Shown here one piece after another: positions 3,001 to 20,000 of a stretch of DNA of 20,000 bases. The notes beneath the pieces were generated by a model. The model made no database searches. It was not told the DNA's origin and saw only the letters and a list, made by a program, of their open reading frames with translations. Within the stretch, counting starts at the first letter, position 1. The number at the start of each line of letters is the position of its first letter. The DNA is from an uncultured virus (IMG/VR IMGVR_UViG_3300026201_000006) (taxonomy: Duplodnaviria; Heunggongvirae; Uroviricota; Caudoviricetes), in IMG/VR virus record IMGVR_UViG_3300026201_000006, positions 56,063 to 76,062 of that record; one strand, written 5' to 3'. The position numbers were made by a program, and so were the translations under genes.

Positions 3001-3822
3001 GATGGTACAAAACTAGATGGCATTGAATCTGCTGCAACCGCAGACCAAACTGGTGCTGAGATTAAAGCATTATATGAGGCAGAAACCTCAGCCTTTACAG
3101 ATGCGCAATTTACTAAGCTAGCAAATATCGAAGCTAATGCTGATGTAACAGATGCAACAAATGTTAATGCTGCTGGTGCAGTTATGTTATCAGATACAAC
3201 AACTTCTGGAATGGGATTTGTTGTTGATGAAGATAATATGGCGTCAGATTCTGCTACTAAATTAGCAACACAACAATCAATTAAAGCATATGTAGATGCA
3301 CGTGAAGCTGCAATTACAACTGCATATACTGCCGCTGATGCAACACAAGATCATTTATCAGAAATGGGCGGTACATTAGATGATATTGATAATGGTACAA
3401 CACACGTTAAAAGTACTAATGACTTTACAGATGCTGCACTAGCAAAACTAGGTGGTATTGAAGCATTAGCAGATGTCACGGATGCTACAAATGTAGAAGC
3501 TGCTGGCGCGGTAATGGAATCAGGTGCTAACGCATCTGCGAAGATACCTTCAGGAACTACAGCACAGAGAGATGGATCTCCAAGTGCTGGTTTCTTTAGA
3601 TGGAATACAACAACTTCAAGTGCGGAAATCTATGATGGAAGTGAGTGGGGATTAGTTGGTGGTGGAAACACTACAGGAAAGGTTATGTGGGAACACAGTT
3701 ATACAGTTGCAGAAGATTATGAAATAACTTCTGGTAACAACGCGTTAACTGCTGGACCAATAACCATTAACTCAGGCTATTCAGTGACGGTCCCTAGCGG
3801 ATCTACTTGGGTAGTGGTTTAA
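1..3822 (+). CDS. Large repetitive tail fibre / virion structural protein, 5'-truncated (over 1270 aa)
   Basis: Frame 1 is open from base 1 (GALSIDLDSESLTIAGGTGIDT...), and the Met at 211 lies inside a repeated DEDDM motif, so the true start is upstream of the window. Thr/Gly/Ala/Asp-rich with no Cys. Carries QTLTNKTLTSP, GDVTGDVTGN and TDDLSEGSxNLYFT motifs, a C-terminal PSGTTAQR...RWNTTT..EIYDG.EW motif and an ending GPITINSG..VTVPSGSTWVVV, all of which I recognise from aquatic phage fibre-like proteins. Confidence 0.8.
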   Translation, partial: GALSIDLDSESLTIAGGTGIDTVGSGNSITASIDSTVTTLTGSQTLTNKTLTSPVLNTGISGTAIKDEDDMASDSATHLATQQSIKAYVDAQVDTADALSELADTTITSPADGSMLLYDTGNSVWIDNVMSGDATLADTGAITLATVNSNVGSFGSTTAIPVITVNAKGLITAASTASITTSLTVGADSGSDDTVALATDTLNFTGGTGIDTTVSDNDISIAIDSTVATLTGTQTLTNKTLTNPTIASINGNVTIGGNLTVSGTQTTVSSTTVNVADPMLSLATNNDSADAVDIGFYGLYDTSGSQDLYSGLFRDASDSGKWKLYKDSQAEPTTTVNVSATGHTTGTLVANLEGNVTGDLTGDVTGDVTGNVSGTAATVTGAAQTAITSLGTLTALDVDNININGNTISSTAGTDLNITPLAGQQIVLDGAINVDAGVVTGATSITSTAFVGDLTGDVTGDVTGNADTATTLATARTIAGQSFNGSADITIASTDLSNTSAITLNTASQTLTNKTLTSPVLNTGVSGTAILDEDDMSSDSATQLATQQSIKAYVDSQVTAQDLDFAADSGGSLSIDLDSEALTFTGGTGIDTSGSGNAVTFAIDSTVTTLTGTQTLTNKTLTSPTVTSPVLNTGVSGSAVKDEDDMSSNSATHLATQQSIKAYVDAQTTDETAEGSNNLYYTEERVDDRVSALIVGGTNVTATYDDANNRLTISATTGASGYDLAANDTDDLSEGSANLYFTDERAQDAAGAQIATNGSHTNITATYDDNGDGAIDLSITDAVIRGKVSVTDAGGDGSLAYNNSTGVITYTGPSAAEARAHISVTDSGGDGSLAYNNSTGVITYTGPSAAEVRAHLSAGTGVTYSGGAISIGQSVATDADVTFDDVVVSGNLTVNGTTTTAASTNTVITDKLIELGNGQTGSPSGDLGLVFERGSSDNAFIGFDESADKFIVGTGSFTGASTGNLTITTGTMVANLEGATASLTGNITVGGTVDGRDVAADGTKLDGIESAATADQTGAEIKALYEAETSAFTDAQFTKLANIEANADVTDATNVNAAGAVMLSDTTTSGMGFVVDEDNMASDSATKLATQQSIKAYVDAREAAITTAYTAADATQDHLSEMGGTLDDIDNGTTHVKSTNDFTDAALAKLGGIEALADVTDATNVEAAGAVMESGANASAKIPSGTTAQRDGSPSAGFFRWNTTTSSAEIYDGSEWGLVGGGNTTGKVMWEHSYTVAEDYEITSGNNALTAGPITINSGYSVTVPSGSTWVVV
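769..1062 (+). repeat. 98-aa (294 bp) module shared with 5211-5504; more divergent copy at about 2668-2934
   Basis: GNLTVSGT..VSSTT..VADP.LSLATNN.SADAVDIG.YGLYDTSGSQDLY.G.FRDASDSGKWK..KD.QAEPTTTVN...GTLVANLEG occurs colinearly and without gaps in both fibre genes. Confidence 0.9.
2365..2568 (+). repeat. Tandem 102-bp (34-aa) repeat, 2 copies
   Basis: SVTD(A/S)GGDGSLAYNNSTGVITYTGPSAAE(A/V)RAH(I/L) at 2365-2466 and 2467-2568. Confidence 0.95.
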
Positions 3823-6143: not shown

Positions 6144-6165
6144 TAAGGGCTCTTCGGAGCCCTTA
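6144..6165. terminator. Perfect 9-bp stem hairpin with cUUCGg tetraloop; likely intrinsic terminator, possibly bidirectional
   Basis: TAAGGGCTC-TTCG-GAGCCCTTA, 12 nt after the fibre stop codon. cUUCGg hairpins are characteristic of T4-like intergenic regions. The U-tract is weak on + and slightly better on - (GAAUUUUACUU). Confidence 0.75.
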
Positions 6166-6171
6166 TAAATA
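6164..6171 (+). promoter_or_regulatory. T4-type late promoter TATAAATA
   Basis: Exact T4 gp55 late consensus in the short intergenic gap, 5 nt before ATG 6177. Confidence 0.75.
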
Positions 6172-6176: not shown

Positions 6177-7613
6177 ATGAATTATCCAAGTGAAACTTTT
6201 TGTGCTCTTCCATGGGTACACCTCTCAACAAGACCAAACGGACACATGCGCGTATGTTGTACAGCTAACGCTTCCGGTGTTCAGAATCCAGACTCTCAAG
6301 ATAAGATAGAATCAGACATTGGCATTCTAAAGAATGATGATGGTATGCCTTCTAATCTTGCCAATACATCATTAGAATCAGCATGGAATAATGCTTATAT
6401 GAGAGGTACACGTAAAGCAATGATGCGTGGTGAGAAACCTAATAGTTGTATTAAGTGTTACAAAGAGGAAGATGCAGGACATAGATCTAAGAGGATGTGG
6501 GAGACCACAAAATGGATTAATAAATTAGGTTTAGAGTCAGTATTAGAAGGTTACGATCCAGAGACTGGTTCAGTACCACCACAAATCCGATACGTGGATC
6601 TTCGCCTTGGGTCTAAGTGTCAGTTAGCCTGTGTTATGTGTTCACCGAACGATTCTTCGGGTTGGATTGTAGAACATAAAAAAATACATCCTAAATTAAA
6701 GAATGAAAATTTAGAAAAAACAATGCGTTGGGAGAAGGAGACAGGTAAGTTAGCCTTCGTAGGTGCAAGTTATGCATGGCATAAAAAGAATCCTATGTTC
6801 TTTGATGAACTATACGAACAAATACCTAAACTAAAACAATTGTATTGGGCAGGTGGTGAACCACTTGTAATGAAAGAACATTATGAATTATTAGAGCAAA
6901 TCATTGAAGATGGTTATGCTAGCGAGATTGAAGTGAGATATAACTCAAACGGAATGGAGTGGGACGACAACTTGTTCGATTTATGGAAGCATTTTAAGGA
7001 AGTTATATTTCATTTCTCTATTGATGATATGGGAGATAGGTTGCATTATATAAGATATCCTGCAACATTCGACCATCTCACTGAAAAAATGAGGGAGTTA
7101 GATAACTATCCTCATGGAAACCTTAGGCTTACAACAGCTTATACTATACAACTACTCAACATATGGTCTATACCAGATTTCGTTAAATGGAAATTAACAA
7201 ATAAATGGAAGCTGTTAAATACATGGCCTCAGGGTGGAGGTATGATTGATAACCATCTGGCATATTGGCCGCCTCAATTAAATTGTAAAGCGTTGCCATT
7301 AGATTTTAAGAAGAAGGTTACTGAAAAGTATGAGGCTTTCTATCCATGGTTAGAAGAGAACTGGGAATTATCTGGTGCACCAACAAAAGAAGCTTTCATG
7401 GAAAACAATTATACTATTGATAGACTTAAAGGTATTGCCTCATTCATGAATGCAGAAGATTGGTCTGTACGATTACCTGAGACTGCTGAATGGTGTTATC
7501 GTGTTGCAGAAGAAAGAGGACAAGATTTTAATGCAATCTTCCCAGAACTATCTTGGCTTCAAGACTATCATAAACCAAACAATGACTTTCCGCTAGTAAT
7601 TAATACTGTTTAA
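6177..7613 (+). CDS. Radical SAM protein with N-terminal twitch-type Fe-S domain (rSAM-1)
   Basis: N-terminal CALPW...G.MRVCC...CIKC; CQLACVMC (CxxxCxxC); GGEP motif; YNSNG and FSID strands. Confidence 0.9.
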   Translation: MNYPSETFCALPWVHLSTRPNGHMRVCCTANASGVQNPDSQDKIESDIGILKNDDGMPSNLANTSLESAWNNAYMRGTRKAMMRGEKPNSCIKCYKEEDAGHRSKRMWETTKWINKLGLESVLEGYDPETGSVPPQIRYVDLRLGSKCQLACVMCSPNDSSGWIVEHKKIHPKLKNENLEKTMRWEKETGKLAFVGASYAWHKKNPMFFDELYEQIPKLKQLYWAGGEPLVMKEHYELLEQIIEDGYASEIEVRYNSNGMEWDDNLFDLWKHFKEVIFHFSIDDMGDRLHYIRYPATFDHLTEKMRELDNYPHGNLRLTTAYTIQLLNIWSIPDFVKWKLTNKWKLLNTWPQGGGMIDNHLAYWPPQLNCKALPLDFKKKVTEKYEAFYPWLEENWELSGAPTKEAFMENNYTIDRLKGIASFMNAEDWSVRLPETAEWCYRVAEERGQDFNAIFPELSWLQDYHKPNNDFPLVINTV

Positions 7614-8277
7614 AAGCCCAGTATTTCTCTTTACACCACCAACATTTCTTACATGGTTTAGTAAAGTTTTTTGTTTCATCTGCCTGGCCTTCACAAGATC
7701 TTGTTAAAGGAAATAAACCTTTCATTAAACCTTCCGATTCAAAACAACGGGCTACCCAAGCTTTATCATGATTTTGAAATGGTTTTTCAGGATGATATCT
7801 TTTTGCACCATCTCTATAAGCAGGTCTATCATCAGTATATAAATCATGTTCTATCATAACAGGTCTAGATGGGTTTTTAGTAACAAATCCGTAACACTCT
7901 TTTAATTTGTATTTCTTTTTATTATCATCAAATACTTTCTGCCATTGATCGTTATCAATTCTTAAACCATCTTTAGGTGGAGTATCTACAATAATATGTT
8001 GAAACTTCTGAGTCTTTGTTAATTTTAATTCTTTTTCAACCCATGTCATAACTTTTTTAGCGTGGGTAACATTCCAATCTTTAGCAGGTTTACCCTTTTT
8101 AGGATTATCATCTGCGTCTCTTTTCCATGTAGCTACAACAATTTTATTCTTTAGTTTATTTTCTTTAATATGTTTAGCTATAGTATATAATCCTAATGCT
8201 GAATCAAGTCCGCCAGATACCCACAAAAGTAAATTTCCAGTCTTTGGTATTTCTATTTTAGTAGTCTTATAATTCAT
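7600..8277 (-). CDS. QueC-like PP-loop ATPase with C-terminal 4-Cys metal site (paralog A)
   Basis: SGGLDS PP-loop near the N-terminus; TRSC-x13-CKKCWWC at the C-terminus; lacks the QueC VPxRN and YPDC motifs. Confidence 0.8.
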   Translation of the reverse strand: MNYKTTKIEIPKTGNLLLWVSGGLDSALGLYTIAKHIKENKLKNKIVVATWKRDADDNPKKGKPAKDWNVTHAKKVMTWVEKELKLTKTQKFQHIIVDTPPKDGLRIDNDQWQKVFDDNKKKYKLKECYGFVTKNPSRPVMIEHDLYTDDRPAYRDGAKRYHPEKPFQNHDKAWVARCFESEGLMKGLFPLTRSCEGQADETKNFTKPCKKCWWCKEKYWAFKQY

Positions 8278-8284
8278 ATAAATA
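8277..8284 (+). promoter_or_regulatory. T4-type late promoter TATAAATA for the 8316-20000+ operon
   Basis: Exact consensus in the 38-nt divergent intergenic gap. Confidence 0.7.
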
Positions 8285-8308
8285 ATAATAAATTGATTAA
8301 CATAAGTT

Positions 8309-8316
8309 TATTTATA
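8309..8316 (-). promoter_or_regulatory. T4-type late promoter TATAAATA (minus strand) for the inverted QueC-like gene
   Basis: TATTTATA on + at 8309-8316, correctly oriented 31 nt upstream of the minus-strand ATG at 8277. Confidence 0.7.
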
Positions 8317-9653
8317 TGAAAAAAGATACCTTCTGTCCACTTCCTTGGAACTCTATTAACCTAAGAAATAATGGTGATATGAGGATTTGTTGTAATACAA
8401 ATTCATATTCACCTAAAAAAGGTATAATGCGTAAGGAAGATGGTACAATATATAACGCTGGAAAAGATGACTTTAATGAGGCAAGGAACGCTGACATATT
8501 AAAGGAAGTTCGTGCAGCTATGCTAAAAGATGAATGGCATCCTGAATGTGAACGCTGTAGACAAGAAGAGATTAATGGTATTCCATCTCGTCGAGAATAT
8601 GAGAATAACGATTGGGAAATAAAAAAAGAAACAGCTATTCCAATCACAATGGAGGATGGAACTCTTGATGTAGATAAACAACTTATTGAATTCTTTGATA
8701 TACGTTATGGTAATTTCTGTAATCTTAAATGTAGAATGTGTGGACCAACAGATTCTCATATGTGGTATCCTGATTATGTTAAACTAAGTGGTGCAACAAC
8801 ATATAAAGATACTCACACTCGTATAGAACTACATCAAACTCCTACAGGTAAATGGACGACTGATCAATATGATTGGTTTAAAGATGCTCCTATTTACTGG
8901 GATAACTTTGAAAAATATGCACATACAGCAAAAAAACTTTATATTGTCGGCGGTGAACCTCTTATTATTAAAGAACACGAAGAGAGTTTACAACGATTAG
9001 TTGATGGTGGTAATGCGCATAATATCGAAATAGAATATAATTCTAATCTAACAAATGTAACAAACAAATACATGGAGTTATGGTCACAGTTTAAACAGAT
9101 CCGTGTAGGTGCATCTGTTGATGGATATGGAGCTGTATTTGATTATCAACGTACACCAGCTAAATGGGATTCCGTGTATAACCATATGAAAAAGCTAAAT
9201 GACAATCGTGATGTAAATCTAAAATGCTGGTTTACATTTACTGTTACACCATATAATGTATATCATATGCCTGAGTTTATTAAATGGAAATTAGAAGAGA
9301 GTGGATTAGACAGATATAATCCTATTGATGGTTTACGGCCGACTATAACTCAGCATATGTGCCACTCACCAAAATATTATAACATTAAAGTACTTCCTCA
9401 AATGTTGAAAGATGACGTAGAAGATCATTATGAATTGTATAAAGAATGGATGAAAGGTACTGACTATTCAGACAAAGTAAAAAAACATTTCTATCAAGTA
9501 TTAGATAGTACAATAAGATTCATGCAATCAGAAGATTATTCTAAAGATCATTTACAAGGCTTCATTGATATAACAAATCAACTAGATGAGATACGAGGTC
9601 AAGATATAAGAGATATTGTACCACAATACAGAGAAATGTTTGATGCGAACTAA
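8316..9653 (+). CDS. Radical SAM protein with N-terminal twitch-type domain (rSAM-2)
   Basis: FCPLPW...GDMRICC...CERC; CNLKCRMC; GGEP; YNSN; ASVDG. Clear paralog of rSAM-1. Confidence 0.9.
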   Translation: MKKDTFCPLPWNSINLRNNGDMRICCNTNSYSPKKGIMRKEDGTIYNAGKDDFNEARNADILKEVRAAMLKDEWHPECERCRQEEINGIPSRREYENNDWEIKKETAIPITMEDGTLDVDKQLIEFFDIRYGNFCNLKCRMCGPTDSHMWYPDYVKLSGATTYKDTHTRIELHQTPTGKWTTDQYDWFKDAPIYWDNFEKYAHTAKKLYIVGGEPLIIKEHEESLQRLVDGGNAHNIEIEYNSNLTNVTNKYMELWSQFKQIRVGASVDGYGAVFDYQRTPAKWDSVYNHMKKLNDNRDVNLKCWFTFTVTPYNVYHMPEFIKWKLEESGLDRYNPIDGLRPTITQHMCHSPKYYNIKVLPQMLKDDVEDHYELYKEWMKGTDYSDKVKKHFYQVLDSTIRFMQSEDYSKDHLQGFIDITNQLDEIRGQDIRDIVPQYREMFDAN

Positions 9654-10749
9654 ACCATATTGTAAAGCACCCTGGCTAGGCTTAGCTTATGAAGGTACAG
9701 TAGGATGTAAACCCTGCTGTGAATGGAAAGGTGATGTTTTTAAAGGTACATATACAGACTATAAGGATTCTGATTACTTAAAAGACTTTAAACAGTTAAT
9801 GTATGAAGATGAAATTCATCCGGCATGTATTGAGTGTACTAATACCGAAGAGAGAAATATTCCTAATGTTTTATCAAGAAGACAGAAATACGAAGGTTAT
9901 CCTGCAGACTTCAATAGTGAAAACAAAGTAGTAAGATTCGATTATAGACCAGGTAATAAATGTAATTTAATGTGTCGCATGTGTTGGGAAGGTGCATCTA
10001 GCTTGATTGAAGAAGAAAAGGGAGTTGAAGTAATGCACTTAGATACTTCAGATGCTTATGATATAGATTTGTCTAATTGTAAAAAACTTATGATATTAGG
10101 CGGTGAACCTTCTATTGATTTAGAAATAAGAAAGTGGATTGACCATATTAAAGATCTTGATATGTATGTTGGTATAACTACTAATGCAACTAACGCATCT
10201 GATAAATGGTTTAATAAGCTTCACTCTATTACTGGCAAACTTGAAATAACTTTATCTGTTGATGCCGCAGGCCCTGTACAAGAATACCAAAGACATAAAA
10301 GTAATTGGAATGAAATTAAACAAAATATATGGAAATATAAAAAGCATTTTAAGAATTTACAAATTCAATTAACTGCTACTGCTATTAATATGCCAGTGCT
10401 TGATACATGGTGGGATGAGCTGATGGAATTTAATATTCCATTATTCTTTGGTGTTGTATTTTGGCCAGTAGAATATAATCTTGATGCTATACCAGATGAA
10501 TATAAAGATTATCAAATAGCCTGGTTAAAAAGATGGATTGAAAATTATGATGATAGACATCAGCAAACGGGTGAAGTATGGAGAAGAAAAACTCTAGAAG
10601 CTGAAGAAGCTATTAGTATTTTACAAGCCAGCAAATTTGACAAAGAAAAGAATTATGCTTTTAAACATGTTGTAGCTAAACAAGATAAAATTAGAAATCA
10701 AAATATATTAGATTTAGATGACAGATTTGAGGATATAATAAATGAGTAG
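9643..10749 (+). CDS. Radical SAM protein with N-terminal twitch-type domain (rSAM-3)
   Basis: Start moved from TTG 9616 to ATG 9643 (MRTKPYCKAPW), which matches the paralog N-termini and overlaps the upstream stop. PCC...CIEC; CNLMCRMC; GGEP; TTNAT; LSVD. Confidence 0.88.
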   Translation: MRTKPYCKAPWLGLAYEGTVGCKPCCEWKGDVFKGTYTDYKDSDYLKDFKQLMYEDEIHPACIECTNTEERNIPNVLSRRQKYEGYPADFNSENKVVRFDYRPGNKCNLMCRMCWEGASSLIEEEKGVEVMHLDTSDAYDIDLSNCKKLMILGGEPSIDLEIRKWIDHIKDLDMYVGITTNATNASDKWFNKLHSITGKLEITLSVDAAGPVQEYQRHKSNWNEIKQNIWKYKKHFKNLQIQLTATAINMPVLDTWWDELMEFNIPLFFGVVFWPVEYNLDAIPDEYKDYQIAWLKRWIENYDDRHQQTGEVWRRKTLEAEEAISILQASKFDKEKNYAFKHVVAKQDKIRNQNILDLDDRFEDIINE

Positions 10750-11980
10750 ATACGATTATGATGGTAAAGATAATGGTGTAGTATGCATGTATCCTTGGGT
10801 TCATACTACTGTAACAATGGAAAATTCTTTAAGACCATGCTGTGGTATTAGTCTGCGTGGTAGAGGCACTGTAAAACTCGGTGAGAATACTAATGATACC
10901 TTAGAAGATGCATTTAAATGGATGAGAGTAAAGATGCTTGCTGGTGAAAAGATAGAAGAATGTAATGAATGTTATTTAAATGAAGCATCTTACCCAGATA
11001 AAATGCAACCTATGTCTATGCGAGGACAAGCTAATACTGACTATAGATTAGACTTACAAAATTTAGATGAAAATTTTATTGGTTTAAAAGGCATGGAAAT
11101 TAGCCTTGATAATATATGTAATCTTCAATGCAAGATGTGTGACTCAATGTTTTCAAGTAATTTATATAGAAGAGATGAACATCTAATAAACGTAGAATTT
11201 GTATATAATGATAAAGTAACTAATCTTGGAAGTAGAAAACCTACAAAGATTCCTAAACAAAGAATTGAATTTATTAAATCTCTTGGTGTAGATTGGTCCG
11301 AGTTACAGCATCTTAAAATCCTTGGCGGTGAACCATTTTATTCACCTAATTTTGAAAAACTATTAGATCATTTAATAGAAGAAGCTAAACCAGAAAATTT
11401 AAGACTTGAGATTGTAAGTAATTGTACAAATAAAGTCGATGAACGAATAATAGATAAGTTAAATTTATTTAAAGAAATTATTCTTACTTGCTCATTAGAT
11501 GGGTGCAATGATTATAATTCATATCAACGTTGGGGTTCTCCTGGTTGGAAAGAGACATTAGAAATTTATAAATGGTATCATTCTAAAATTTATAAAATGG
11601 TTAAACATCATGTGCATTCAACATATTCATTATTAAATTTAAATGGATTAGCTGGTGATATAGTATGGTTTGCTGAGAATTATCCAGAGTGTAGTGTGTC
11701 AAGATTAATAGTAAAAGATGGTGACTATTGTCCTCATTATGCGCCCGCTGAATATTTAGATTGGTTAGAAGAAGAATGGAGTAAAGTCGAGATGTCAGAT
11801 GATGCTATGTTAAAACTTGATAGTCAAAGACATAAATTATTTAAAAAAGAAGAGTATAACCATAAACGATGGGCAAGATTCAAAGAAAAGATTGTTGCTT
11901 TAGATAAATATTATGATTCAAAATTAGAAGATTATAATCCTGAGCTTGCTGAGTTTATTGAAGAAGGATGGGGATGCTAA
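10742..11980 (+). CDS. Radical SAM protein with N-terminal twitch-type domain (rSAM-4)
   Basis: CMYPW...LRPCC...CNEC; CNLQCKMC; GGEP; SLDG; YQRW. Confidence 0.9.
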   Translation: MSRYDYDGKDNGVVCMYPWVHTTVTMENSLRPCCGISLRGRGTVKLGENTNDTLEDAFKWMRVKMLAGEKIEECNECYLNEASYPDKMQPMSMRGQANTDYRLDLQNLDENFIGLKGMEISLDNICNLQCKMCDSMFSSNLYRRDEHLINVEFVYNDKVTNLGSRKPTKIPKQRIEFIKSLGVDWSELQHLKILGGEPFYSPNFEKLLDHLIEEAKPENLRLEIVSNCTNKVDERIIDKLNLFKEIILTCSLDGCNDYNSYQRWGSPGWKETLEIYKWYHSKIYKMVKHHVHSTYSLLNLNGLAGDIVWFAENYPECSVSRLIVKDGDYCPHYAPAEYLDWLEEEWSKVEMSDDAMLKLDSQRHKLFKKEEYNHKRWARFKEKIVALDKYYDSKLEDYNPELAEFIEEGWGC

Positions 11981-13146
11981 AATGTAAATATGCTTGGGGT
12001 CATTTAGACTTCAAGAAAGGTGGATATGCTCCATGCTTTCGTTTTAAAAGGCATGACTTTGTAGAATCAGGTAGTGATAAACTTCCTTCTGAAGTAATTA
12101 ATAATAGTGACTTTGTAAAGGTTCGTCAGCAACTTCGTAATGGTGTATTTCCAAATGGTTGTATAGATTGTAAAATACAAGAAGAGGCTGGAGTATCTTC
12201 GTATAGAACACGATCACTAGACATTGCTCATATATCTGAACCTGATTATGATAGTGATAATATCTATATAAAAGATTTACAGATCAAAGCAACCCGAGCT
12301 TGTAACTATCAGTGTAGACATTGTGACACAGCATCTAATTCAAGATTCGAATTAACTGGTAGACAATTCCCTGAGATAGAAACAAAATTAAGAAAGGATT
12401 TTCAATTCACACATATATCTACACCTAAAGAAAAGATTCCTGTTCCGGCTACTGAAGTTATTGATGATTTATTTAAAAATGTTATACCGCGTGGAGTAGA
12501 AGGAATAGAATTTTCTGGTGGTGAACCATTCTATACACGAGATATGTATAAACACTTACATAGAATGATAGATGATCCAAACATTGATACGAAAAAGATT
12601 CAACTTATATACAATACAAATATGAGTATCTTAGAATATAAAGGATATAATGTTAAAGATCTTTGGCCGCATTTTAAAGGTGTAAATGTAACAGTATCTA
12701 TGGATGGCACAGGCGATCTGTTTAATTACTTTAGAACTGGGGGAGATTACCAAACAGTTATAAATAATATAAAAGAGATTGCACCATATGTAACTAAGTT
12801 TTTATTTGTGTGTACTACATCATCATATCAGGCTTTTTATATGAATGAAATATATAAAGACTTGTGTGATATAAGAGACTCAATTGATACACCTGCAAAT
12901 ATAAGAGCTACATTTGTTCATTGGCCTCAGGTTATGGATATTGTAAATCTTGAAGAAGATGTCAAGCTTCATTTGTTAGCAAATACAGATGAAAATGATT
13001 TTACAAAAGAATTCTTAAAGAGATTGACAGGTAAAAGAACAATAGATACATATAAGTTTAAAGAACTAGTAAAACTACAAGATGAATTATATGATGTATC
13101 TGCAAAAGAGATGGCTCCTAAAATATGGGATTATGTAAATGCTTGA
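11968..13146 (+). CDS. Radical SAM protein with N-terminal twitch-type domain (rSAM-5); start may be 11974
   Basis: CKYAW...APC...CIDC; CNYQCRHC; SGGEP; YNTN; VSMDG. Confidence 0.88.
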   Translation: MGMLKCKYAWGHLDFKKGGYAPCFRFKRHDFVESGSDKLPSEVINNSDFVKVRQQLRNGVFPNGCIDCKIQEEAGVSSYRTRSLDIAHISEPDYDSDNIYIKDLQIKATRACNYQCRHCDTASNSRFELTGRQFPEIETKLRKDFQFTHISTPKEKIPVPATEVIDDLFKNVIPRGVEGIEFSGGEPFYTRDMYKHLHRMIDDPNIDTKKIQLIYNTNMSILEYKGYNVKDLWPHFKGVNVTVSMDGTGDLFNYFRTGGDYQTVINNIKEIAPYVTKFLFVCTTSSYQAFYMNEIYKDLCDIRDSIDTPANIRATFVHWPQVMDIVNLEEDVKLHLLANTDENDFTKEFLKRLTGKRTIDTYKFKELVKLQDELYDVSAKEMAPKIWDYVNA

Positions 13147-14296
13147 TAATAGATTAGATCAATTAACCATAGAGGTTACATCAAATTGCCAGGCAAAATG
13201 CCCTGGGTGTATACGCCATAAAGTAATTAATTCTGTTACAGATGAAATTGGCGGTCCGCCAAAAAATATTAATATGACATTAGAAGCTCATAACAAATTA
13301 CTTGATGAGGCTTCTCCATTAAAGTATATATCATACGATGGTGGATTTGGTGATTCTCCTCTTCATCCAAAATTTCTAGAGATGATAGAATACGCAGCAA
13401 AGAAAGATATAGAGATGCTTACTATATCTACTAATGCATCTATGCGTAATCCAAAATGGTGGGCAAAACTTGGTGCTATATTAAGTGAGCATTTACCTAC
13501 TGTTGATGGTGTAGATCGTCATAAAATCTTTTTTGATTTAGATGGTGTCGATAATGAAACACAAGAAATGTATAGAATCAATACTAGCTTTGATAAGATT
13601 ATTGCAAATGCAAAAGCATTTATAGGTGCGGGTGGTACTGCATGTTGGAAAATGATTCCATTTGAATTTAATGAACCACTAGAAGAAAGAGCAAAAGAGT
13701 TAGCCACAGAATATGGGTTTGCAGAATTTCATAGAGATAGAGTACAGCGAATAGAACAAGTAGCAAGTAAGTTAGCCATCTTTAAAGCTATGAAAGGTGA
13801 AGATGCAGATTATAAAGATATGCGTGATGCAGAAATCAATTTATCACCTAAGAGTAATTTAGATGAGGTGGCAGAAAAAGCGAAGACACTCATACAAGAT
13901 GTTGAGATTAATCCTGCTTTAAGTGTAGAACAGAATCTAGATAATGCAAAAGAAAAATCTGGTATAGTATGTGAATGGTCTGAAAATGGTATGTGGCAAA
14001 TATCACACGATGGTGGAGTATATAGATGTTGTTGGCATCAGTCTAATTATAACTATTGGACAAGATTAAACTCAGGTGATAAACATGCTTGGGAAAGATT
14101 TATGGATAACTATGACGAGAATTGGAATAATATAAATTATCATACATGGGATGAGATAGTAAATCATCCATTCTTTACAGAAGACTTAGAGAAATCTTGG
14201 TCTAATTCGTATGACGATGAGGTCATGCCTAAATTAAAAGTTTGCACAAAGCGGTGCTCAAAACTAAATGTTGAATTAAGCGAGAGGCTAAGTTAA
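13139..14296 (+). CDS. Radical SAM protein with C-terminal twitch/SPASM-like domain (rSAM-6)
   Basis: N-terminal CQAKCPGC; GGFGD; STNAS; DLDG; C-terminal CEW...ISHDGGVYRCCW...VCTKRC. Confidence 0.85.
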   Translation: MLDNRLDQLTIEVTSNCQAKCPGCIRHKVINSVTDEIGGPPKNINMTLEAHNKLLDEASPLKYISYDGGFGDSPLHPKFLEMIEYAAKKDIEMLTISTNASMRNPKWWAKLGAILSEHLPTVDGVDRHKIFFDLDGVDNETQEMYRINTSFDKIIANAKAFIGAGGTACWKMIPFEFNEPLEERAKELATEYGFAEFHRDRVQRIEQVASKLAIFKAMKGEDADYKDMRDAEINLSPKSNLDEVAEKAKTLIQDVEINPALSVEQNLDNAKEKSGIVCEWSENGMWQISHDGGVYRCCWHQSNYNYWTRLNSGDKHAWERFMDNYDENWNNINYHTWDEIVNHPFFTEDLEKSWSNSYDDEVMPKLKVCTKRCSKLNVELSERLS

Positions 14297-15195
14297 TGAT
14301 TGAGGAAAATATAGTAATATACGGAAGAGGTAAAGCAAAAACAATACCTCATGAAAAAACATATAATATAAAATTAAATATTGATAAATCAGATAAACAT
14401 ATCGGAATAGGCATGTCAGGTGGAATGGATTCAGCCATGTTATTGTGGTTACTTGCATATCATATTGATAAAAATAATTGGGATACAACAATACATCAAT
14501 GGTCGGTCTGCCTTGACGAAAGACCTTTTCAAGTTCATCACGCAAAGAAAGTTATTCAATTTGTAAAAGATTCTTTCCCTAATGTTGAATTTGGAGAGCA
14601 TAGAACTAGCGTAGCCAATTCAATAGAATATGTGGATCATGGTACAGAATTATCATGGGAAATGGCTTATGATTGGAAAATAACAAAATTATTTAACGGT
14701 GTAACACTAAATCCATCAAAACATGAACAACAATATTGGGGTGTAGCATGGGAAAAAAGAGCTTTGAATCGTGATGATGATACTGCTGGTTGGGATGAAG
14801 AAGAAATTAAAGAGATACACCTTCCAATTATTGATAATGAATTTGGACCTGAAGCAAAAGCTTTATGTGGAAAAGAGTGGAATCAAAAAGCAATAGATGA
14901 TTTGTGTGATCAAGGTAGAAAAGTTTCTAATTATAAGTTCTTTGAAAATCTTCCGTTTATACACGATGATAAAAGAATTGTACTAGCTTTATATAAAAAG
15001 TATGGGTTATTATTAGAGCTTGGTCCATTAACAAGAAGTTGTGAAGGACCATGGGAAAGAACAGATGGATTTAAAACAGAATGTAAACGCTGTTGGTGGT
15101 GTATAGAAAAACAATGGGCTACCGCTCATATTTGGAATAATGATCCTAAAGAAGCATTAAAATATTATCCAGGGATTACTGAACCAGGGGTATAA
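14296..15195 (+). CDS. QueC-like PP-loop ATPase with C-terminal 4-Cys site (paralog B)
   Basis: MSGGMDS PP-loop; TRSC-x13-CKRCWWC; TAATG-coupled on both sides. Confidence 0.8.
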   Translation: MIEENIVIYGRGKAKTIPHEKTYNIKLNIDKSDKHIGIGMSGGMDSAMLLWLLAYHIDKNNWDTTIHQWSVCLDERPFQVHHAKKVIQFVKDSFPNVEFGEHRTSVANSIEYVDHGTELSWEMAYDWKITKLFNGVTLNPSKHEQQYWGVAWEKRALNRDDDTAGWDEEEIKEIHLPIIDNEFGPEAKALCGKEWNQKAIDDLCDQGRKVSNYKFFENLPFIHDDKRIVLALYKKYGLLLELGPLTRSCEGPWERTDGFKTECKRCWWCIEKQWATAHIWNNDPKEALKYYPGITEPGV

Positions 15196-16244
15196 TGTAC
15201 AAATACGAAGATATAAAACAGGTTCATCTTGAGCCAACGCAGAAGTGTCAGGCAAGATGTCCAATGTGTGATCGTAATGTGAATGGTGGTAAAGATAATT
15301 ATCATTTAACTAATGCTGATCTATCATTGATGGATGTCAAGATTATGATGCCTGAAGCTTTTGTACGCCAGCTTGAGAACCTCTATATGTGTGGTAATCA
15401 TGGTGATCCGATGATGGCACCTGAAACATTAGAGATATGCCAATGGTTAAAGGAAGTTAATCCGAAGATACGTCTTGCAATGAATACAAATGGTGGTGCA
15501 CGAACACCTGGTTGGTGGAGAGAGTTAGCAAAGGTTGTAGACCATGTAACATTCTCTGTTGATGGTTTAGATGACACTAATCATTTGTATAGACAAGGTG
15601 TTAGTTGGAATAAAGTAGAAGAAAATATGGCCGCCTTTTGTGAAGCAGGTGGTAACGCGAAGTGGGAATTCTTAGTATTTAAACATAACGAACATCAGCT
15701 TGAAGAGGCTGAGTTATGGTCAAAGACATTAGGTGTTAAAACATTTAGTGTAAAGAAATCAGGTAGATATATTTCTAGTGCAACGTTAAAGAAAAAAGAT
15801 TCACATCAATCACAGGACAGACATGAGCAACACACACAACTCTTGGAGCCACCTACTATGGAACGCTTTAAGAACAAGGCAAGCACAACATTTGATGAGA
15901 TTACTAGGAAGTTTGGTTCTATGGATTCTTATCTGGATGTGGCTGACATAGAGCCTAAATGCATAAAGAAAAAAGAGATTTATATTTCAGCTGAGGGATT
16001 TGTATTCCCTTGTTGTTGGACAGCAGGACAAATGTATAAATGGTGGCAAAAACCAGGTGAAGCACAGATATGGGAACACATAGATCAGTACGATATTAAT
16101 GCAATCACTACACCTATAGAAGAAATTATAAATACATTTTTTAATTCAATAGAGGAAGCATGGGAAGTTGGGCCTAACCGATTAAAGGTTTGTGCTCTTA
16201 AATGTAATAAAGCATTTGACCCATTTGCAGCACAATGGCAGTAA
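15195..16244 (+). CDS. Radical SAM protein with C-terminal twitch/SPASM-like domain (rSAM-7)
   Basis: CQARCPMC; GNHGDP; NTNGG; FSVDG; C-terminal PKC...ISAEGFVFPCCW...VCALKC. Paralog of rSAM-6. Confidence 0.9.
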   Translation: MYKYEDIKQVHLEPTQKCQARCPMCDRNVNGGKDNYHLTNADLSLMDVKIMMPEAFVRQLENLYMCGNHGDPMMAPETLEICQWLKEVNPKIRLAMNTNGGARTPGWWRELAKVVDHVTFSVDGLDDTNHLYRQGVSWNKVEENMAAFCEAGGNAKWEFLVFKHNEHQLEEAELWSKTLGVKTFSVKKSGRYISSATLKKKDSHQSQDRHEQHTQLLEPPTMERFKNKASTTFDEITRKFGSMDSYLDVADIEPKCIKKKEIYISAEGFVFPCCWTAGQMYKWWQKPGEAQIWEHIDQYDINAITTPIEEIINTFFNSIEEAWEVGPNRLKVCALKCNKAFDPFAAQWQ

Positions 16245-17368
16245 AAGAATTAAAGTGGAGTGAATATGACTTCGGTCAAATACCTTTTGATGATATAGAA
16301 CATTTTGGTACACGTTCTATGTTGGATAGAGATACATTTACAGTATCTTGGTTACTAGGAAGATTCTGTAATTACCGCTGTTCTTATTGCTGGCCGTATG
16401 CAAGATCAGATAAGAAAGACCATAGACCACTTAAAGCAACTATAGGAACAATAGATGAAATTAAAAGACAAGCAAGGGAAAGGGGGTTTAATTCGTTCCA
16501 CTTTAGCCTCTCTGGTGGAGAGCCAACCTTTCATCCACAGTATTTGGATATTGTACGTCATCTCAATGATGATGTTAGCAGATGTAATTTTCACTCACTT
16601 CACATGACCTCAAATATTTCTCGACCGTTAAAATGGTTCGAGGAATATTATCAAGCATCTAAAGATATGCATCGTGTATCGATTACAGCTTCTTATCATA
16701 GAGAACATGTAAACACACCAAAGAAGGTAAAAGAATTTGCAGACAAATTAGAATTCTGTCAAGAACATAATATACAAGTTACTATTAATATAGTTATGGT
16801 GCCTGAGTTCTTTGAGAAATTTTATGAGGAAGCATTGTACTTTCATAGCAGAGATATAAATGTAACACTTAAACCTCAATCAGATCCTACCGCTTCATTT
16901 GTTGTAGATGGATATACAGATGAACAATTAGCAGTTTTACATAAAGGAATGCCACAACGAGCATACACTCAAGAAAAATCTAAAGTTGATAGACCACATT
17001 ATAAGTGGAGAAACAAAGCAGTAGATAATAGATATGGTAAAGTACCTGCTCACTTTGAAATAGAATTTACAGATAAGCATGGTAAGAAATGGTATATGGA
17101 TCAGGCAGAAAGATTCAATGCATTTAACTTTAATAACTTTAATGGATGGGAATGTTCATCAGGTTATAGAAGTATTATTATACGTGAACCAGATGGTACA
17201 ATCAAAAGAAGTTATTCTTGCCATGATGAACCATTAGGCCAAATAGAAACTGGGTTTAAGTTATATGATGGACCCAAGATATGTACAACAAGTGCTTGTG
17301 TATCTTCAGCCGATAGTAAGATACCTAAACGCAAGCCAGGAAATATGATCCCATTATGGACGCAATAG
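16235..17368 (+). CDS. Radical SAM protein with degenerate C-terminal twitch/SPASM-like region (rSAM-8)
   Basis: CNYRCSYC; SGGEP; MTSN; ASYH; C-terminal ECSSG...DGTIKRSYSC...ICTTSAC. Confidence 0.88.
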   Translation: MAVKELKWSEYDFGQIPFDDIEHFGTRSMLDRDTFTVSWLLGRFCNYRCSYCWPYARSDKKDHRPLKATIGTIDEIKRQARERGFNSFHFSLSGGEPTFHPQYLDIVRHLNDDVSRCNFHSLHMTSNISRPLKWFEEYYQASKDMHRVSITASYHREHVNTPKKVKEFADKLEFCQEHNIQVTINIVMVPEFFEKFYEEALYFHSRDINVTLKPQSDPTASFVVDGYTDEQLAVLHKGMPQRAYTQEKSKVDRPHYKWRNKAVDNRYGKVPAHFEIEFTDKHGKKWYMDQAERFNAFNFNNFNGWECSSGYRSIIIREPDGTIKRSYSCHDEPLGQIETGFKLYDGPKICTTSACVSSADSKIPKRKPGNMIPLWTQ

Positions 17369-17586
17369 AAGAGCTTATAAATACTTTTGATACACGTGAA
17401 CTTCAGTTAGAAGCCGCACGAGTTATAAGTTCGCATAATGCAAACAATATATGGATAAAACAATTTAAAGCAAATCATAACTCAGAGGAATTTTACAAGA
17501 ATGTCATCAGATGGTATATTATTGAGTACGGAGGATTTCCTAGCGAAGTCGAACCCGGAAGTAAAATTAAACTTCTTTACGTTTAA
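17356..17586 (+). CDS. Small hypothetical protein (76 aa)
   Basis: ATG overlaps the end of rSAM-8 like the other coupled genes and fills an otherwise empty gap; no recognisable motif. Confidence 0.6.
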   Translation: MDAIEELINTFDTRELQLEAARVISSHNANNIWIKQFKANHNSEEFYKNVIRWYIIEYGGFPSEVEPGSKIKLLYV

Positions 17587-18304
17587 GTGGGGAACATTAT
17601 ATGGACCAGAATATGTTAATAGATTATACGGAAGTATAAAGAGGTTTTGTGATCTGGATTTTAACTTTACTTGTATTACTGATAACCCTAGTGGGATTAA
17701 TCCTGATGTAGGCTTAATAGATTATAATACATTTGGTCCAGATCATTGGAGATCTTATGGTCAAGATAAAATTTTTACTCGTGAAAAATTATGTCTATTT
17801 GATTTAGATCTTCCAGGCACAAAGCTGTGGGTAGACTTAGATAATTTAATTCACGGTGATATAACAGAATTAGTAAGTAGAGATTTTGATAAGCCAACAT
17901 TTATTCTAAACCACTGGAATATAAAAAAAGAAGGTGCACACAAATGGTTTGGTAAAGGATCAGATTGTCACGTTAACTCAAGCTTTGTGGCATGGCAAGA
18001 TGCTCAATGGTTATTTGATTATACAAATGAAAATCTAGAGAAGCTCATGTTCACCTACAAGTCTTTAGATAAATACTTATATTACCAGCATTATCGTAAC
18101 GATAGATTAGCGTATTGGGAAGAAGGCATTGTAGATAATTATAATTTTAGTGAGCCGCCTCATACCGAAAGAGAAGAAGCAAGGATGACATTATTTAATA
18201 CATCACACATTCGAATACAAAGAATGGGTATTGAAGCATTTGAATTACATGAAACAGAGGGTCAATGGCCCTGGGAATATTGGACAAGTTATGACGCAAG
18301 TTGA
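17501..18304 (+). CDS. Glycosyltransferase-like protein (GT-A type, DxD); start uncertain
   Basis: KWGxxYxxxYVNRL...FTCITD N-terminal signature, K.LF...WVDLDNLI (DxD) and NSSFV motifs. Confidence 0.7.
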   Translation: MSSDGILLSTEDFLAKSNPEVKLNFFTFKWGTLYGPEYVNRLYGSIKRFCDLDFNFTCITDNPSGINPDVGLIDYNTFGPDHWRSYGQDKIFTREKLCLFDLDLPGTKLWVDLDNLIHGDITELVSRDFDKPTFILNHWNIKKEGAHKWFGKGSDCHVNSSFVAWQDAQWLFDYTNENLEKLMFTYKSLDKYLYYQHYRNDRLAYWEEGIVDNYNFSEPPHTEREEARMTLFNTSHIRIQRMGIEAFELHETEGQWPWEYWTSYDAS

Positions 18305-18728
18305 TGCCTGGATATATACACAAATAACAACATTTAGTGAAGCTGAATCTATTGCTATCGTGGGCCCAGCGGATAAAAGAAATTTATATGATGAGTTTAA
18401 TGCTATTGATAGACTTACAGTAAATATGTACGACTACGATCCTCAAAGAGCTTGCGATGAAATTATTACTGCTGATGTTGTATTTGATATTGAACTAAAA
18501 GAAGAGCTCATTATAAATTATGCTTGTGAAAAGATGTGGCCGTTAGGTAAGATGTATAAGGATAGAGAATTTATATTAGTAGGTGATAATGAACATCATA
18601 ACGGTGATTGTAATCCTATTACTGGTAATAAACAATTAGCGGAACAAAATGAATTAAAAGAAATCTGGACATTTAATGAATTTAATAGATGGAAAGGTAA
18701 ATATTATGTGGTATACGGATGCAATTAG
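18291..18728 (+). CDS. Hypothetical protein, degenerate class I methyltransferase-like paralog of the downstream gene
   Basis: Start moved from 18231 to ATG 18291, a 14-nt overlap like neighbouring junctions. IAIVG, YDYDP, LIINYACEKM and QLAEQN align by eye with VEIVGG, FDVDP, LIINTSCEHM and ELAEKN of the next gene. Confidence 0.6.
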   Translation: MTQVDAWIYTQITTFSEAESIAIVGPADKRNLYDEFNAIDRLTVNMYDYDPQRACDEIITADVVFDIELKEELIINYACEKMWPLGKMYKDREFILVGDNEHHNGDCNPITGNKQLAEQNELKEIWTFNEFNRWKGKYYVVYGCN

Positions 18729-19459
18729 GAATAGTAGATTTAGAAAAAGAATTAGGACCACGTGACGCAGATCATATGGGTCATGATGTAAAAAAACCAG
18801 TAGATCCTGAAATATATTATAATATGCTCAAATGGTTTAATAGAAATTATCCAGATAAGATGGATAGATTTATTGAAAGCATATCACCTAATCAGATAGA
18901 AGGTAAGAATTGGTTAGTAAAAGAATTAGATAAGGTACAAATACCACGTGATCAGGAAGGTCGATTTAAGGTTGAAATTGTTGGTGGTTGGTTTGGCTTT
19001 CCTCTTATAGATTTGTTATATAATAAATACGGTGATCAGATAAGAGCTATTGACTTTTTTGATGTGGATCCATTTGCGGCAAAAGTGTTTGGAGTATATC
19101 TAAGTACATGGTGGGTAGATATACAAGATGTTAAAATATTTAGCAATAGCATGGGTGATTATTTTAATTATAAAGAGAAGCGTAGAGCTCATTTAATAAT
19201 TAATACCTCATGTGAACATATGCCAGATATGTTGAGTATGAAAGAATATTATTTTGATCCTGAAAGAACCTTATTATGTTTACAAAGTAATAATAAAACG
19301 GATGAAGACGATCATATTAATTGTGTAGAAAATGAGCAAGAGCTGGCAGAAAAGAATGGCATTCAATTATTAAATGGTGGATGGCGAACAATGAAAAGTA
19401 AAGAAGGTAAGACATATAATTTTTGGAATAGATATATGGCAATGGGAAAATGGATTTAG
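18719..19459 (+). CDS. Class I SAM-dependent methyltransferase-like protein
   Basis: VEIVGGWFG (motif I-like), acidic FFDVDP at the end of strand 2, and a LIINTSCEHM motif. Confidence 0.65.
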   Translation: MQLGIVDLEKELGPRDADHMGHDVKKPVDPEIYYNMLKWFNRNYPDKMDRFIESISPNQIEGKNWLVKELDKVQIPRDQEGRFKVEIVGGWFGFPLIDLLYNKYGDQIRAIDFFDVDPFAAKVFGVYLSTWWVDIQDVKIFSNSMGDYFNYKEKRRAHLIINTSCEHMPDMLSMKEYYFDPERTLLCLQSNNKTDEDDHINCVENEQELAEKNGIQLLNGGWRTMKSKEGKTYNFWNRYMAMGKWI

Positions 19460-20000
19460 AATTATTTTTATGGGCAACAGGCTTAGGCTTCTTATGGTGT
19501 CAGGTAATTACACATTACGCTGTCTCCGTGGGATTACATAGATACTTTGCTCACGGACAATTTAGAACAAGTGTATTTCACGAATGGGGCTTTATTATAG
19601 GCATACTCATTGCGTGTGTTCGTACACCTATTGGTTGGATAAGTTCTCATAGAATGCACCATGCAGATACAGAGGGACCATTAGATCCACATGACGCTAA
19701 ACGAATAGGTTACTGGAAAGTAGCAACTACTACTTGGGATTTAAAACATGTTCCAGTAAGGTTTGCAAAAGACTTATACAATAACCCAAGACTTGTATGG
19801 GCTCATGAGAATTGGGAAACATTCTTATGGTTATATTGGGCAGTATGTATGGCTATATCACCATACTTCTGGTGGGGTGCAGCATTTATGCCATACCTAT
19901 TTGCAAAGGTAGGATTTGGTATGTTAAATATATTTGGTCATTGGAATGGTCCGACAGATGGTCCATGGATGAATTGGATTTTAGGTGGCGATGGTTATCA
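19450..20000 (+). CDS. Membrane fatty acid desaturase (delta-9 / DesC-OLE1-like), 3'-truncated
   Basis: Own translation from ATG 19450: MDLELFLWATGLGFLW...GLHRYFAH (19537-19554)...WISSHRMHHADTEGPLDPH (HRMHH at 19648-19662)...LNIFGH...GGDGY(H) running off the window at the third His box. Hydrophobic segments present; open to base 20000. Confidence 0.9.
   Translation, partial: MDLELFLWATGLGFLWCQVITHYAVSVGLHRYFAHGQFRTSVFHEWGFIIGILIACVRTPIGWISSHRMHHADTEGPLDPHDAKRIGYWKVATTTWDLKHVPVRFAKDLYNNPRLVWAHENWETFLWLYWAVCMAISPYFWWGAAFMPYLFAKVGFGMLNIFGHWNGPTDGPWMNWILGGDGY

Follow-up and report, generated by a model that had tools for sequence, protein, structure and literature searches.

A strain-variable island of radical SAM and QueC-like genes beside the tail fibres of a marine T4-like phage: a candidate surface-tailoring pathway

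Marine T4-like phages have been reported to carry radical S-adenosylmethionine (rSAM) genes in numbers. In the accessible text of Nishimura et al. (2017), 12 rSAM genes are counted in one marine T4-like viral genome and discussed as Fe-S-dependent viral enzymes (PMC5332604), and the accessible text of Zaragoza-Solas et al. (2020) describes a host recognition cluster (HRC) in pelagimyophages and cyanomyophages that is hypervariable and contains fibres, glycosyltransferases and rSAM cassettes (PMC7029224). A second point of comparison is the QueC family, whose hallmarks are SGGxDS and C(x)8CxxCxxC and in which preQ0 synthesis needs the motifs YxQxHxxE, VPxRN and YPDC (accessible part of PMC13329287); both QueC and Cap9 adenylate a carboxylate (Cap9 preprint abstract; same part of PMC13329287). 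Here we analyse the last 20,000 bases (the window) of a 76,062-base IMG/VR virus record (IMGVR_UViG_3300026201_000006; CheckV completeness 44%), in which an island with eight rSAM genes and two genes for QueC-like PP-loop ATPases directly follows two tail-fibre genes. We tentatively read the island as one late-expressed, strain-variable tailoring pathway for sugar-type surface decoration, a reading to which we give a probability of roughly 0.35.

The rSAM and PP-loop genes are arranged as follows (lengths in amino acids, aa):

6177..7613, plus strand: rSAM1, 478 aa, N-terminal-twitch type; NF033640 391.5 bits, Radical_SAM 37.5 bits; CQLACVMC at residue 148
7600..8277, minus strand: PP-loop ATPase 1, QueC-family-like, 225 aa; SGGxDS and C(x)13CxxCxxC
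8316..9653, plus strand: rSAM2, 445 aa, N-terminal-twitch type; NF033640 363.3 bits
9616..10749, plus strand: rSAM3, N-terminal-twitch type; NF033640 182.1 bits; likely start ATG 9643
10742..11980, plus strand: rSAM4, 412 aa, N-terminal-twitch type; NF033640 197.8 bits
11968..13146, plus strand: rSAM5, 392 aa, N-terminal-twitch type; NF033640 206.3 bits
13139..14296, plus strand: rSAM6, 385 aa, C-terminal twitch-like Cys; Radical_SAM 38 bits; phrog_21308 E 1.3e-17
14296..15195, plus strand: PP-loop ATPase 2, QueC-family-like, 299 aa; SGGMDS and C(x)13CxxCxxC; the most variable gene of the island
15195..16244, plus strand: rSAM7, 349 aa, C-terminal twitch-like Cys; Radical_SAM 49.4 bits; phrog_21308 E 3.4e-19
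16235..17368, plus strand: rSAM8, 377 aa, third type, four C-terminal Cys; Radical_SAM 61.4 bits

Eight of the 17 scanned open reading frames (ORFs) of the window match Pfam Radical_SAM (PF04055) at 33-61.4 bits, against a gathering cut-off of 29.5 bits, and each of the eight carries CxxxCxxC exactly once. An earlier reading made from the sequence alone (the sequence-only reading) had named eight rSAM ORFs with extra Cys-rich domains, and both calls hold, the extra Cys being N-terminal in five proteins, C-terminal in two and present as four C-terminal Cys in one. The five N-twitch proteins pass the 170-bit cut-off of NCBIfam NF033640 (N_Twi_rSAM) with the scores listed above, while rSAM7 (58.7 bits) and rSAM8 (38.1 bits) fall below it and rSAM6 is not among the matches. 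All five share the cluster motif, a GGE motif and, in the N-terminal part, an invariant C...C(C)...CxxC set; specifically, C9, C27, C91 and C94 are invariant across the five paralogs, and 98 family members show the same columns as invariant or conserved to at least 90%. Pfam SPASM matches the N-terminus slightly under its cut-off (17.7 and 20.3 versus 21.5 bits), and the N-terminal Cys are predicted to serve as a twitch-type ligand set for a putative auxiliary cluster. rSAM6 and rSAM7, 26% identical to each other, carry a C-terminal twitch-like C...CC...CxxxC set. The rSAM paralogs keep all cluster ligands and are mutually only 20-29% identical, and must therefore be old.

Two points of annotation concern single members. 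The ORF of rSAM3 opens at TTG 9616, with a 38-nt overlap with rSAM2, and both the alignment and a 368-aa homolog (L017) point to ATG 9643. rSAM8 was considered as a viperin and rejected, its best named match, viperin_w_prok, scoring 42.6 bits against a cut-off of 180; in a PADLOC scan, pVip matches were confined to the rSAM core.

The AlphaFold model of rSAM2 has a pLDDT (predicted local distance difference test) score of 97.0, and its fold matches are tied: BlsE 11.6, CteB 11.6, SkfB 11.3, anSME 11.1, viperin 11.0 and MoaA 10.9. Sequence and fold searches of the N-twitch enzyme against solved structures returned the generic rSAM core only, and sequence searches with rSAM7 and rSAM8 returned marginal core matches only (E 0.03-0.08). 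With peptide, sugar, nucleotide and cofactor enzymes tied, the substrate class is not readable from the modelled N-twitch fold. The C-twitch type occurs fused to a flavodoxin/CysJ-like domain in P0123 and P0124, and one flavodoxin-fused C-twitch rSAM is filed under the dinoflagellate Symbiodinium microadriaticum.

The sequence-only reading had also named two QueC-like ATPases, and this stands for both proteins at the level of fold and shared motifs. The best fold matches are Cap9 and QueC, with the C-terminal Zn part included, and the phosphate-binding loop SGGxDS is present in both, as SGGLDS and SGGMDS. The two are 25.6% identical to each other, and PP-loop 2 is 38-39% identical to its orthologs in L012 and L014. 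Their Zn-type motif is the variant C(x)13CxxCxxC and not the C(x)8CxxCxxC of QueC, and is invariant in 21 aligned relatives. None of the three QueC catalytic motifs YxQxHxxE, VPxRN and YPDC is found in either protein. Pfam QueC (PF06508) gives no match at E<=0.01 for the PP-loop proteins of the window, a precomputed PF06508 label is attached to 4 of 30 PP-loop homologs, PADLOC gives no QatC-like match, and a sequence search of PP-loop 2 against solved structures returned nothing meaningful. Because all three catalytic motifs are absent, the two proteins are predicted to be repurposed QueC-family scaffolds and not preQ0 synthases. By analogy with Cap9, they may activate a carboxylate with ATP and pass it on to an amine.

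A QueC-family scaffold could also point to a modified nucleobase, nucleoside or cofactor-like small molecule, made for DNA or RNA hypermodification or as an inhibitor, with the QueC-like enzymes and rSAMs in 7-deazapurine-type roles. The QueC-family fold and the Zn motif would suit such a product, as would weak QueE-like PHROG matches for three rSAMs (E 4.3e-6 to 1.1e-4), the presence of QueE and viperin among the fold matches, and nucleotide-metabolism genes on the contig. We nevertheless consider it quite unlikely: the QueC catalytic motifs are missing from both PP-loop proteins, TGT/DpdA, QueD (PTPS) and FolE (GTP cyclohydrolase I) are each found in none of five related contigs (all fragments, 17-50% complete), viperin models stay at 42.6 bits against their 180-bit cut-off, the island sits in the structural module behind late-type motifs, and hypervariability at strain level is not expected of a DNA-modification pathway. 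The sequence-only reading had likewise argued away from DNA hypermodification, and the lack of TGT/DpdA, QueD and FolE from the five fragments agrees with it.

Homologs of these genes are widespread. With rSAM2 as query, 1084 homologs were found at E<=1e-10, none meaningfully named, and a search in cellular genomes returned no close relatives; a profile built from the five paralogs retrieved 21,983 cluster representatives at the E<=1e-3 level, of which 5471 also passed E<=1e-30; tandem double enzymes were frequent among them. Among 22 fused N-twitch members scanned, one is joined to an FkbM-type methyltransferase and two to TPR repeats. An alignment scan with the PP-loop proteins gave 75 viral loci, 39 of which have rSAM ORFs within 10 kb, mostly 4-10 each. 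These 39 loci collapse to 18 non-redundant groups, in which the PP-loop protein is 25-36% identical to the window's. All 18 groups have rSAM genes, nine have methyltransferase-like genes, seven to eight have Asp/Asn-hydroxylase-like cupins, seven have glycosyltransferase-like genes and six have a 549-aa family, while homologs of the window fibres occur in three and the desaturase in two. N-twitch, C-twitch, rSAM8-type and methyltransferase-like genes recur jointly across the groups. Independent assortment across genomes had been named in the sequence-only reading as the outcome that would speak against it, and the gene families instead co-occur (39 of 75 loci, 18 groups).

The association extends to a bacterium. 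In a metagenome-assembled genome (MAG) of 2.3 Mb and 61% G+C (G006), seven N-twitch genes lie above the cut-off and cluster with rSAM8-type, SPASM-type and B12-binding rSAMs, an asparagine synthase (Asn_synthase) and a GT4 glycosyltransferase, and true N-twitch members are present in 7 of 41 related genomes. Two of its contigs (L036 and L037; contigs C41 and C19) also show up to nine rSAM genes, TPR fusions and an M17 aminopeptidase. Small ORFs between the MAG rSAM genes were considered as precursors and set aside; they look like GC-rich frame artefacts. In a distant rSAM array, an alternative oxidase gene (AOX/PTOX, Pfam E 2.8e-82) lies at L019:12886-13500, adjoining an Asp/Asn-hydroxylase-like gene.

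The island itself is compact. Its genes overlap or abut, with only four gaps, of 17-132 nt, between called genes of the window. Gene order after the fibres is the same in six close relatives (rSAM1 identity 93-99%), which have 8-9 rSAM genes; the synteny survey proposed with the sequence-only reading thus finds the island after fibre genes in all six. Two relatives extend past the window end and add about 10 kb of island. There the desaturase-like gene is followed by a 274-aa protein, three TauD-family Fe/2-oxoglutarate dioxygenases and two Asp/Asn-hydroxylase-like cupins, and the continuation also holds an FMN (flavin mononucleotide) reductase, a 480-490-aa methyltransferase-like protein and a nitroreductase. 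Sequence searches of the 274-aa protein (L022) and of the 549-aa family (L050) against solved structures found nothing meaningful. The whole island is thus roughly 24 kb, tightly packed and with almost all genes on one strand, and the window holds its first 14 kb; the extent of about 14 kb given by the sequence-only reading becomes a lower bound, the contig ending inside the island. At the far edge of the island in relative G001 lies a 612-aa phage gene with CHASE2 sensor and adenylate/guanylate cyclase domains (L023:17372-19210, minus strand; Pfam E 1.5e-37 and 3.3e-16; phrog_35576).

Conservation along the island is uneven. Against G001, DNA identity stays near 90% for rSAM1, rSAM2 and the rSAM7/8 junction, and falls to 62-74% over 9500-15000, from rSAM3 to PP-loop 2; over the fibres it is 73-83%. 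G002, otherwise 96-99% identical, has local dips (68-80% over 9501-10500, 78% over 14501-15000) and carries an inserted paralog. From the identities over 9500-15000 and over the fibres, together with the G002 dips, we conclude that turnover in the island's middle keeps pace with that of the receptor-binding genes.

Such turnover could also mean that there is no joint pathway, the island being a hypervariable dumping ground in which unrelated auxiliary genes and duplicated rSAM genes act independently. In the accessible text of PMC7029224 the region is hyperplastic in related phages, and here close relatives differ, with 8-9 rSAMs, inserted paralogs and an extra 244-286-aa ORF. This seems to us very unlikely all the same, as the same family combination is found in 18 groups and a bacterium, the paralogs are old (20-29% identity) yet retain every cluster ligand, and the genes are translationally coupled or overlapping. 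A single pathway, in contrast to loose genes, is supported by the overlapping or abutting genes, by the 39 of 75 loci with rSAM genes, by the recurrence of the families and by the pairing of N-twitch and rSAM8-type genes in the MAG.

The setting of the island involves the following features, in which TATAAATA is the T4 late-promoter motif:

1..3822, plus strand: tail fibre gene 1, 1405 aa, beginning 395 bases before the window; no Cys; phrog_892 E 1.3e-21 (part in the window) and 4.8e-40 (full protein)
3840..6131, plus strand: tail fibre gene 2, 763 aa; no Cys; phrog_21412 E 1.1e-71
6144..6171, plus strand: GC-rich hairpin followed directly by TATAAATA, 6 nt 5' of the first rSAM start codon
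8277..8316, both strands: divergent intergenic region with TATAAATA on each strand, each 32 nt before a start codon

The position directly after tail-fibre genes, as the sequence-only reading had it, is confirmed by the PHROG matches of both fibres immediately upstream. The two fibres have in common a 112-aa segment, 80% identical, and other repeated pieces, and neither contains collagen-like repeats. The island is near fibre genes also in the L096 group, and in a distant myovirus with a different backbone (G004) the array begins about 8 kb downstream of fibre-like genes. With respect to the late promoters, the number of TATAAATA copies in the window is not above chance (six versus 4.03 expected; at least six in 46 of 200 shuffles), but their placement is non-random, 13 of 23 motifs on the contig touching intergenic DNA, which makes up 5% of it. 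Four lie at island gene starts, at 6164, 8277, 8309 (minus strand) and 17376; three of these are 6 nt before rSAM1, 32 nt before rSAM2 and 32 nt before the minus-strand PP-loop gene. Several others on the contig precede baseplate and fibre genes. The earlier claim of T4 late-promoter motifs before the island thus survives for the four motifs at gene starts and not for their number, which is not above chance. Motif placement and small gaps fit late transcription units, as judged by match to the consensus. RNA contigs of 160-444 nt from four libraries of two studies, which map to genes of the island and in some cases differ at only 0-2 positions, were considered as evidence of expression and not counted, as the libraries may hold DNA. 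Taken together, the fibre adjacency in all six relatives, the proximity to fibres in two further lineages, the presence of TATAAATA at gene starts as at structural genes, and the variable middle support a role at the surface or in host interaction.

Downstream of rSAM8 the window contains five further genes:

17356..17586, plus strand: small conserved ORF, 76 aa, no Cys; overlaps the next gene by 86 nt, with TATAAATA inside at 17376
17501..18304, plus strand: GT-A-like putative glycosyltransferase, 267 aa; phrog_1962 E 1.9e-4
18231..18728, plus strand: protein with a Rossmann-like motif pattern, motifs by eye; start uncertain, the ORF of relatives being 147 aa
18719..19459, plus strand: methyltransferase-like Rossmann protein, 246 aa; Atlas lead and motifs by eye
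19450..20000, plus strand: membrane di-iron desaturase/hydroxylase-like gene, cut by the contig end; 215 aa in relatives

The 76-aa ORF is 85% identical at the amino-acid level in L023 and L024, versus 74% for the neighbouring gene, and has a homolog in 1 of the 18 array groups. The GT-A-like protein has no Pfam or NCBIfam match; its nearest named Atlas clusters are GT8 (0.95) and nucleotide-diphospho-sugar transferase (0.94), which we take as a look-alike lead, and a paralog lies upstream at contig positions 54716-55306 (phrog_1962 E 3.2e-12). The protein at 18231..18728 is 78% identical in L023 and has no family match in Pfam, NCBIfam or PHROG, and the methyltransferase-like protein found nothing meaningful among solved structures by sequence. 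The glycosyltransferase and methyltransferase folds claimed by the sequence-only reading are therefore kept as weak calls, the first on phrog_1962 and the Atlas look-alike, the second on an Atlas lead and Rossmann-like motifs by eye. Its desaturase is on firmer ground: the protein has three His boxes (HRYFAH, HRMHH and HKVHH), and the full-length relative in L022 exceeds the Pfam FA_desaturase (PF00487) cut-off, at 35.4 versus 29.7 bits. Assignment as a DesA equivalog was tried and rejected (NCBIfam DesA family, 30.4 bits versus a cut-off of 400).

A desaturase-like gene with three His boxes raises the question of host-envelope remodelling late in infection, in which lipid desaturation or hydroxylation and core-glycan changes would alter lipopolysaccharide, lipid A or membrane lipids and could block superinfection or keep progeny from sticking to debris. 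Asp/Asn-hydroxylase-family cupins are present, and this family includes the lipid A hydroxylase LpxO. There are also weak GT8-like matches (contig 52210-52332, E 1.4e-5, and the Atlas lead), and an O-chain modification was proposed for glycosyltransferases of this region by Zaragoza-Solas et al. (accessible text of PMC7029224). Set against this, the desaturase occurs in only 2 of the 18 groups, rSAM arrays and QueC-like enzymes have no known link to lipid A chemistry, and superinfection exclusion genes are usually early, whereas the motifs here are late-type. We regard envelope remodelling as unlikely.

Under the sugar-type reading, the pathway might run as follows. A uronic acid, in the form of a carboxylated sugar nucleotide, would be supplied by the host or made by a phage dehydrogenase; the QueC-like enzymes would adenylate its carboxylate and then amidate it or ligate it to an amine. 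Each rSAM would contribute one C-H-based step (epimerisation, dehydration, decarboxylation or C-C/C-methyl chemistry), reduced by flavin reductases of the island, and methyl transfer and hydroxylation would follow. Finally, the GT-A-like protein would attach the product at a surface, on fibres of the phage itself or on the host envelope. The flavodoxin fusions (P0123 and P0124) and the FMN_red and nitroreductase genes of the continuation support such an electron supply. The sequence-only reading had not chosen among a small molecule, a glycan, a lipid and protein modification as the outcome, and the evidence now leans modestly towards a sugar-type product. This modest lean comes from UDP-glucose/GDP-mannose dehydrogenase genes, which in 4 of 22 records from independent groups are placed within the array or no more than about 3.5 kb away, from a carbohydrate-type sulfotransferase in the L018 array, from glycosyltransferase-like genes, seen in 7 of 18 groups, from the FkbM fusion, and from the bacterial Asn_synthase and GT4 genes.

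Several observations weigh against this reading. The dehydrogenase count, like the other gene counts, has no background rate beside it and is not a claim of enrichment. Canonical glycan genes are few: GT2 is found in none of 23 records, and GT8 is above its cut-off in 1 of 23 and at E<=1e-3 in 5 of 23. Of 22 records, 5 contain the epimerase family, for the most part at a distance of 7-20 kb from the array, and Pfam and NCBIfam scans of the window and close relatives gave no sugar-pathway dehydrogenase, nucleotidyltransferase or aminotransferase. The glycosyltransferase and methyltransferase calls of the window are weak, and the tied fold matches of the modelled N-twitch enzyme do not favour sugar over peptide enzymes. 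In addition, amino acids, peptides and lipid A are further substrates of the TauD and Asp/Asn-hydroxylase families, and the TPR fusions (2 of the 22 fused members) also fit protein substrates. At 36 of the 75 PP-loop loci there is no rSAM gene within 10 kb, and the late timing is read from the consensus motif.

Some of these points lead to another candidate, which we hold to be possible but doubtful: direct modification of the fibres, of other virion proteins or of a small peptide, like that of ribosomally synthesised and post-translationally modified peptides (RiPPs), by cross-links, epimerisation, hydroxylation or methylation, with the QueC-like enzymes, in the manner of Cap9 and QatC, joining a carboxylate to an amine on a protein. 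SkfB, CteB, anSME, SuiB and EpeE figure in the tied group of top fold and sequence matches, the PP-loop proteins match Cap9 best, Asp/Asn beta-hydroxylase-like cupins accompany the arrays in 7-8 of 18 groups, some N-twitch members have TPR fusions, the island adjoins fibre genes, and a conserved 76-aa ORF lies within it. Conversely, a PqqD/RRE (RiPP recognition element) domain was found in none of 23 records, a scan that cryptic RREs may escape, and there is no credible precursor gene of the usual kinds, the sole small conserved ORF of the window being without Cys and present in 1 of 18 groups. The fibres lack Cys and collagen-like repeats, so that thioether chemistry and collagen prolyl hydroxylation are out, and the PADLOC scan gave no QatC-like match.

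PHROG matches of 73 upstream ORFs include a T4-like core (UvsX, a gp41-type helicase, gp32, gp59 and a gp33-type late transcription factor, phrog_254), a class Ia ribonucleotide reductase and dCMP deaminase, and structural proteins, namely baseplate hub and wedge proteins, a 1677-aa structural protein (phrog_358, a candidate VrlC) and tail-fibre proteins. Because of the T4-like core genes and a helicase 60-64% identical to those of cyanomyoviruses and the Methylophilales phage Melnitz, we assign the contig, by its gene content, to a marine T4-like myovirus and not to a cell; the phage origin assumed in the sequence-only reading is thereby upheld. G+C changes from about 40% across the fibre genes to about 30-35% across the island. 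DNA of this particular phage was detected in marine metagenomes from many studies, and a megablast of the island against 50,697 phage records gave no match. Among the matches listed for window positions 6000-15999, eleven DNA runs contain exactly 0.59 of the sampled words, a fraction that fits a widespread relative sharing the conserved blocks and not the variable middle. At 3226-3297, 72 nt match a structural gene of Pelagibacter phage HTVC115P with 91.7% identity, which hints at exchanged modules and perhaps at SAR11 as host. Far upstream, in the replication region, lie phrog_455 and cytidyltransferase-family genes (contig G000, 9734-12326; L008), which we presume to resemble phage NAD+ salvage genes.

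The island touches a large gap in enzymology. The N-twitch family, with 5471 representatives at the stricter threshold, has neither a known reaction nor a solved structure, and the module offers a compact and conserved setting, with QueC-like ligases and in abundant marine phages, in which to study it. Given the fibre adjacency and the fibre-like strain variability, the product may matter for who infects whom at sea. Solving its function would reveal new radical chemistry and test whether phages modify the host surface or their own receptor-binding organelles by chemical decoration. A more speculative idea, which we advance with slightly more reserve than protein modification, is that the array acts as a chemical diversity generator, in which N-twitch rSAMs and QueC-like ligases make a strain-specific, heavily edited fibre decoration. 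If so, chemistry, and not fibre sequence alone, would tune host range or escape from host defences, and the array would provide the first reactions for a family of more than 5000 clusters and a new kind of virion modification in very common ocean phages.

Among described systems, the locus resembles the HRC: both are large islands, hypervariable and located in the structural region, of marine T4-like phages in which Asp/Asn beta-hydroxylase is common (accessible text of PMC7029224). The HRC borders run from VrlC to gp14, and the present contig ends inside the island. The accessible text of that paper gives neither a family-level analysis nor a function for the rSAM cassettes (PMC7029224), and the genome of Nishimura et al., like this phage marine, T4-like and rich in rSAMs, has its rSAM genes counted without arrangement, partners or function in the accessible text (PMC5332604). 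Our literature search found no paper on N-terminal twitch or N-terminal SPASM rSAMs and no functional study of phage rSAM arrays. The sequence-only reading had called the system undescribed: rSAM cassettes of this region were in print in 2017 and 2020 (PMC5332604, PMC7029224), while the accessible texts give them no function. Because those papers assign no function and no functional study was found, the island is a new, unexplained variant of a region known at annotation level.

The component families show likenesses and differences of their own. Relative to QueC, Cap9 of type IV CBASS (cyclic-oligonucleotide-based antiphage signalling system) and QatC, the PP-loop proteins of the island are alike in SGGxDS, the four-Cys Zn-type motif and the fold, and differ in lacking YxQxHxxE, VPxRN and YPDC, in the C(x)13 spacing, in having no TGT partner in the five related fragments and in giving no QatC match by PADLOC. 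Mycobacteriophage virion glycosylation operons (Freeman et al. 2023, as cited in the accessible part of PMC12619734) also use phage sugar-transfer genes, which decorate the phages' own structural proteins; those operons are glycosyltransferase-based and have no rSAM array, whereas here the evidence for a transferase is weak. As matches, the rSAM sugar-tailoring enzymes BlsE and DesII and the RiPP maturases SkfB, CteB and anSME are all tied, at 9-17% identity. The five N-twitch proteins keep the N-terminal Cys set, CxxxCxxC and GGE of NF033640, a family without a known reaction, and carry their auxiliary domain at the N-terminus, in contrast to the C-terminal one of BlsE/SkfB-type enzymes.

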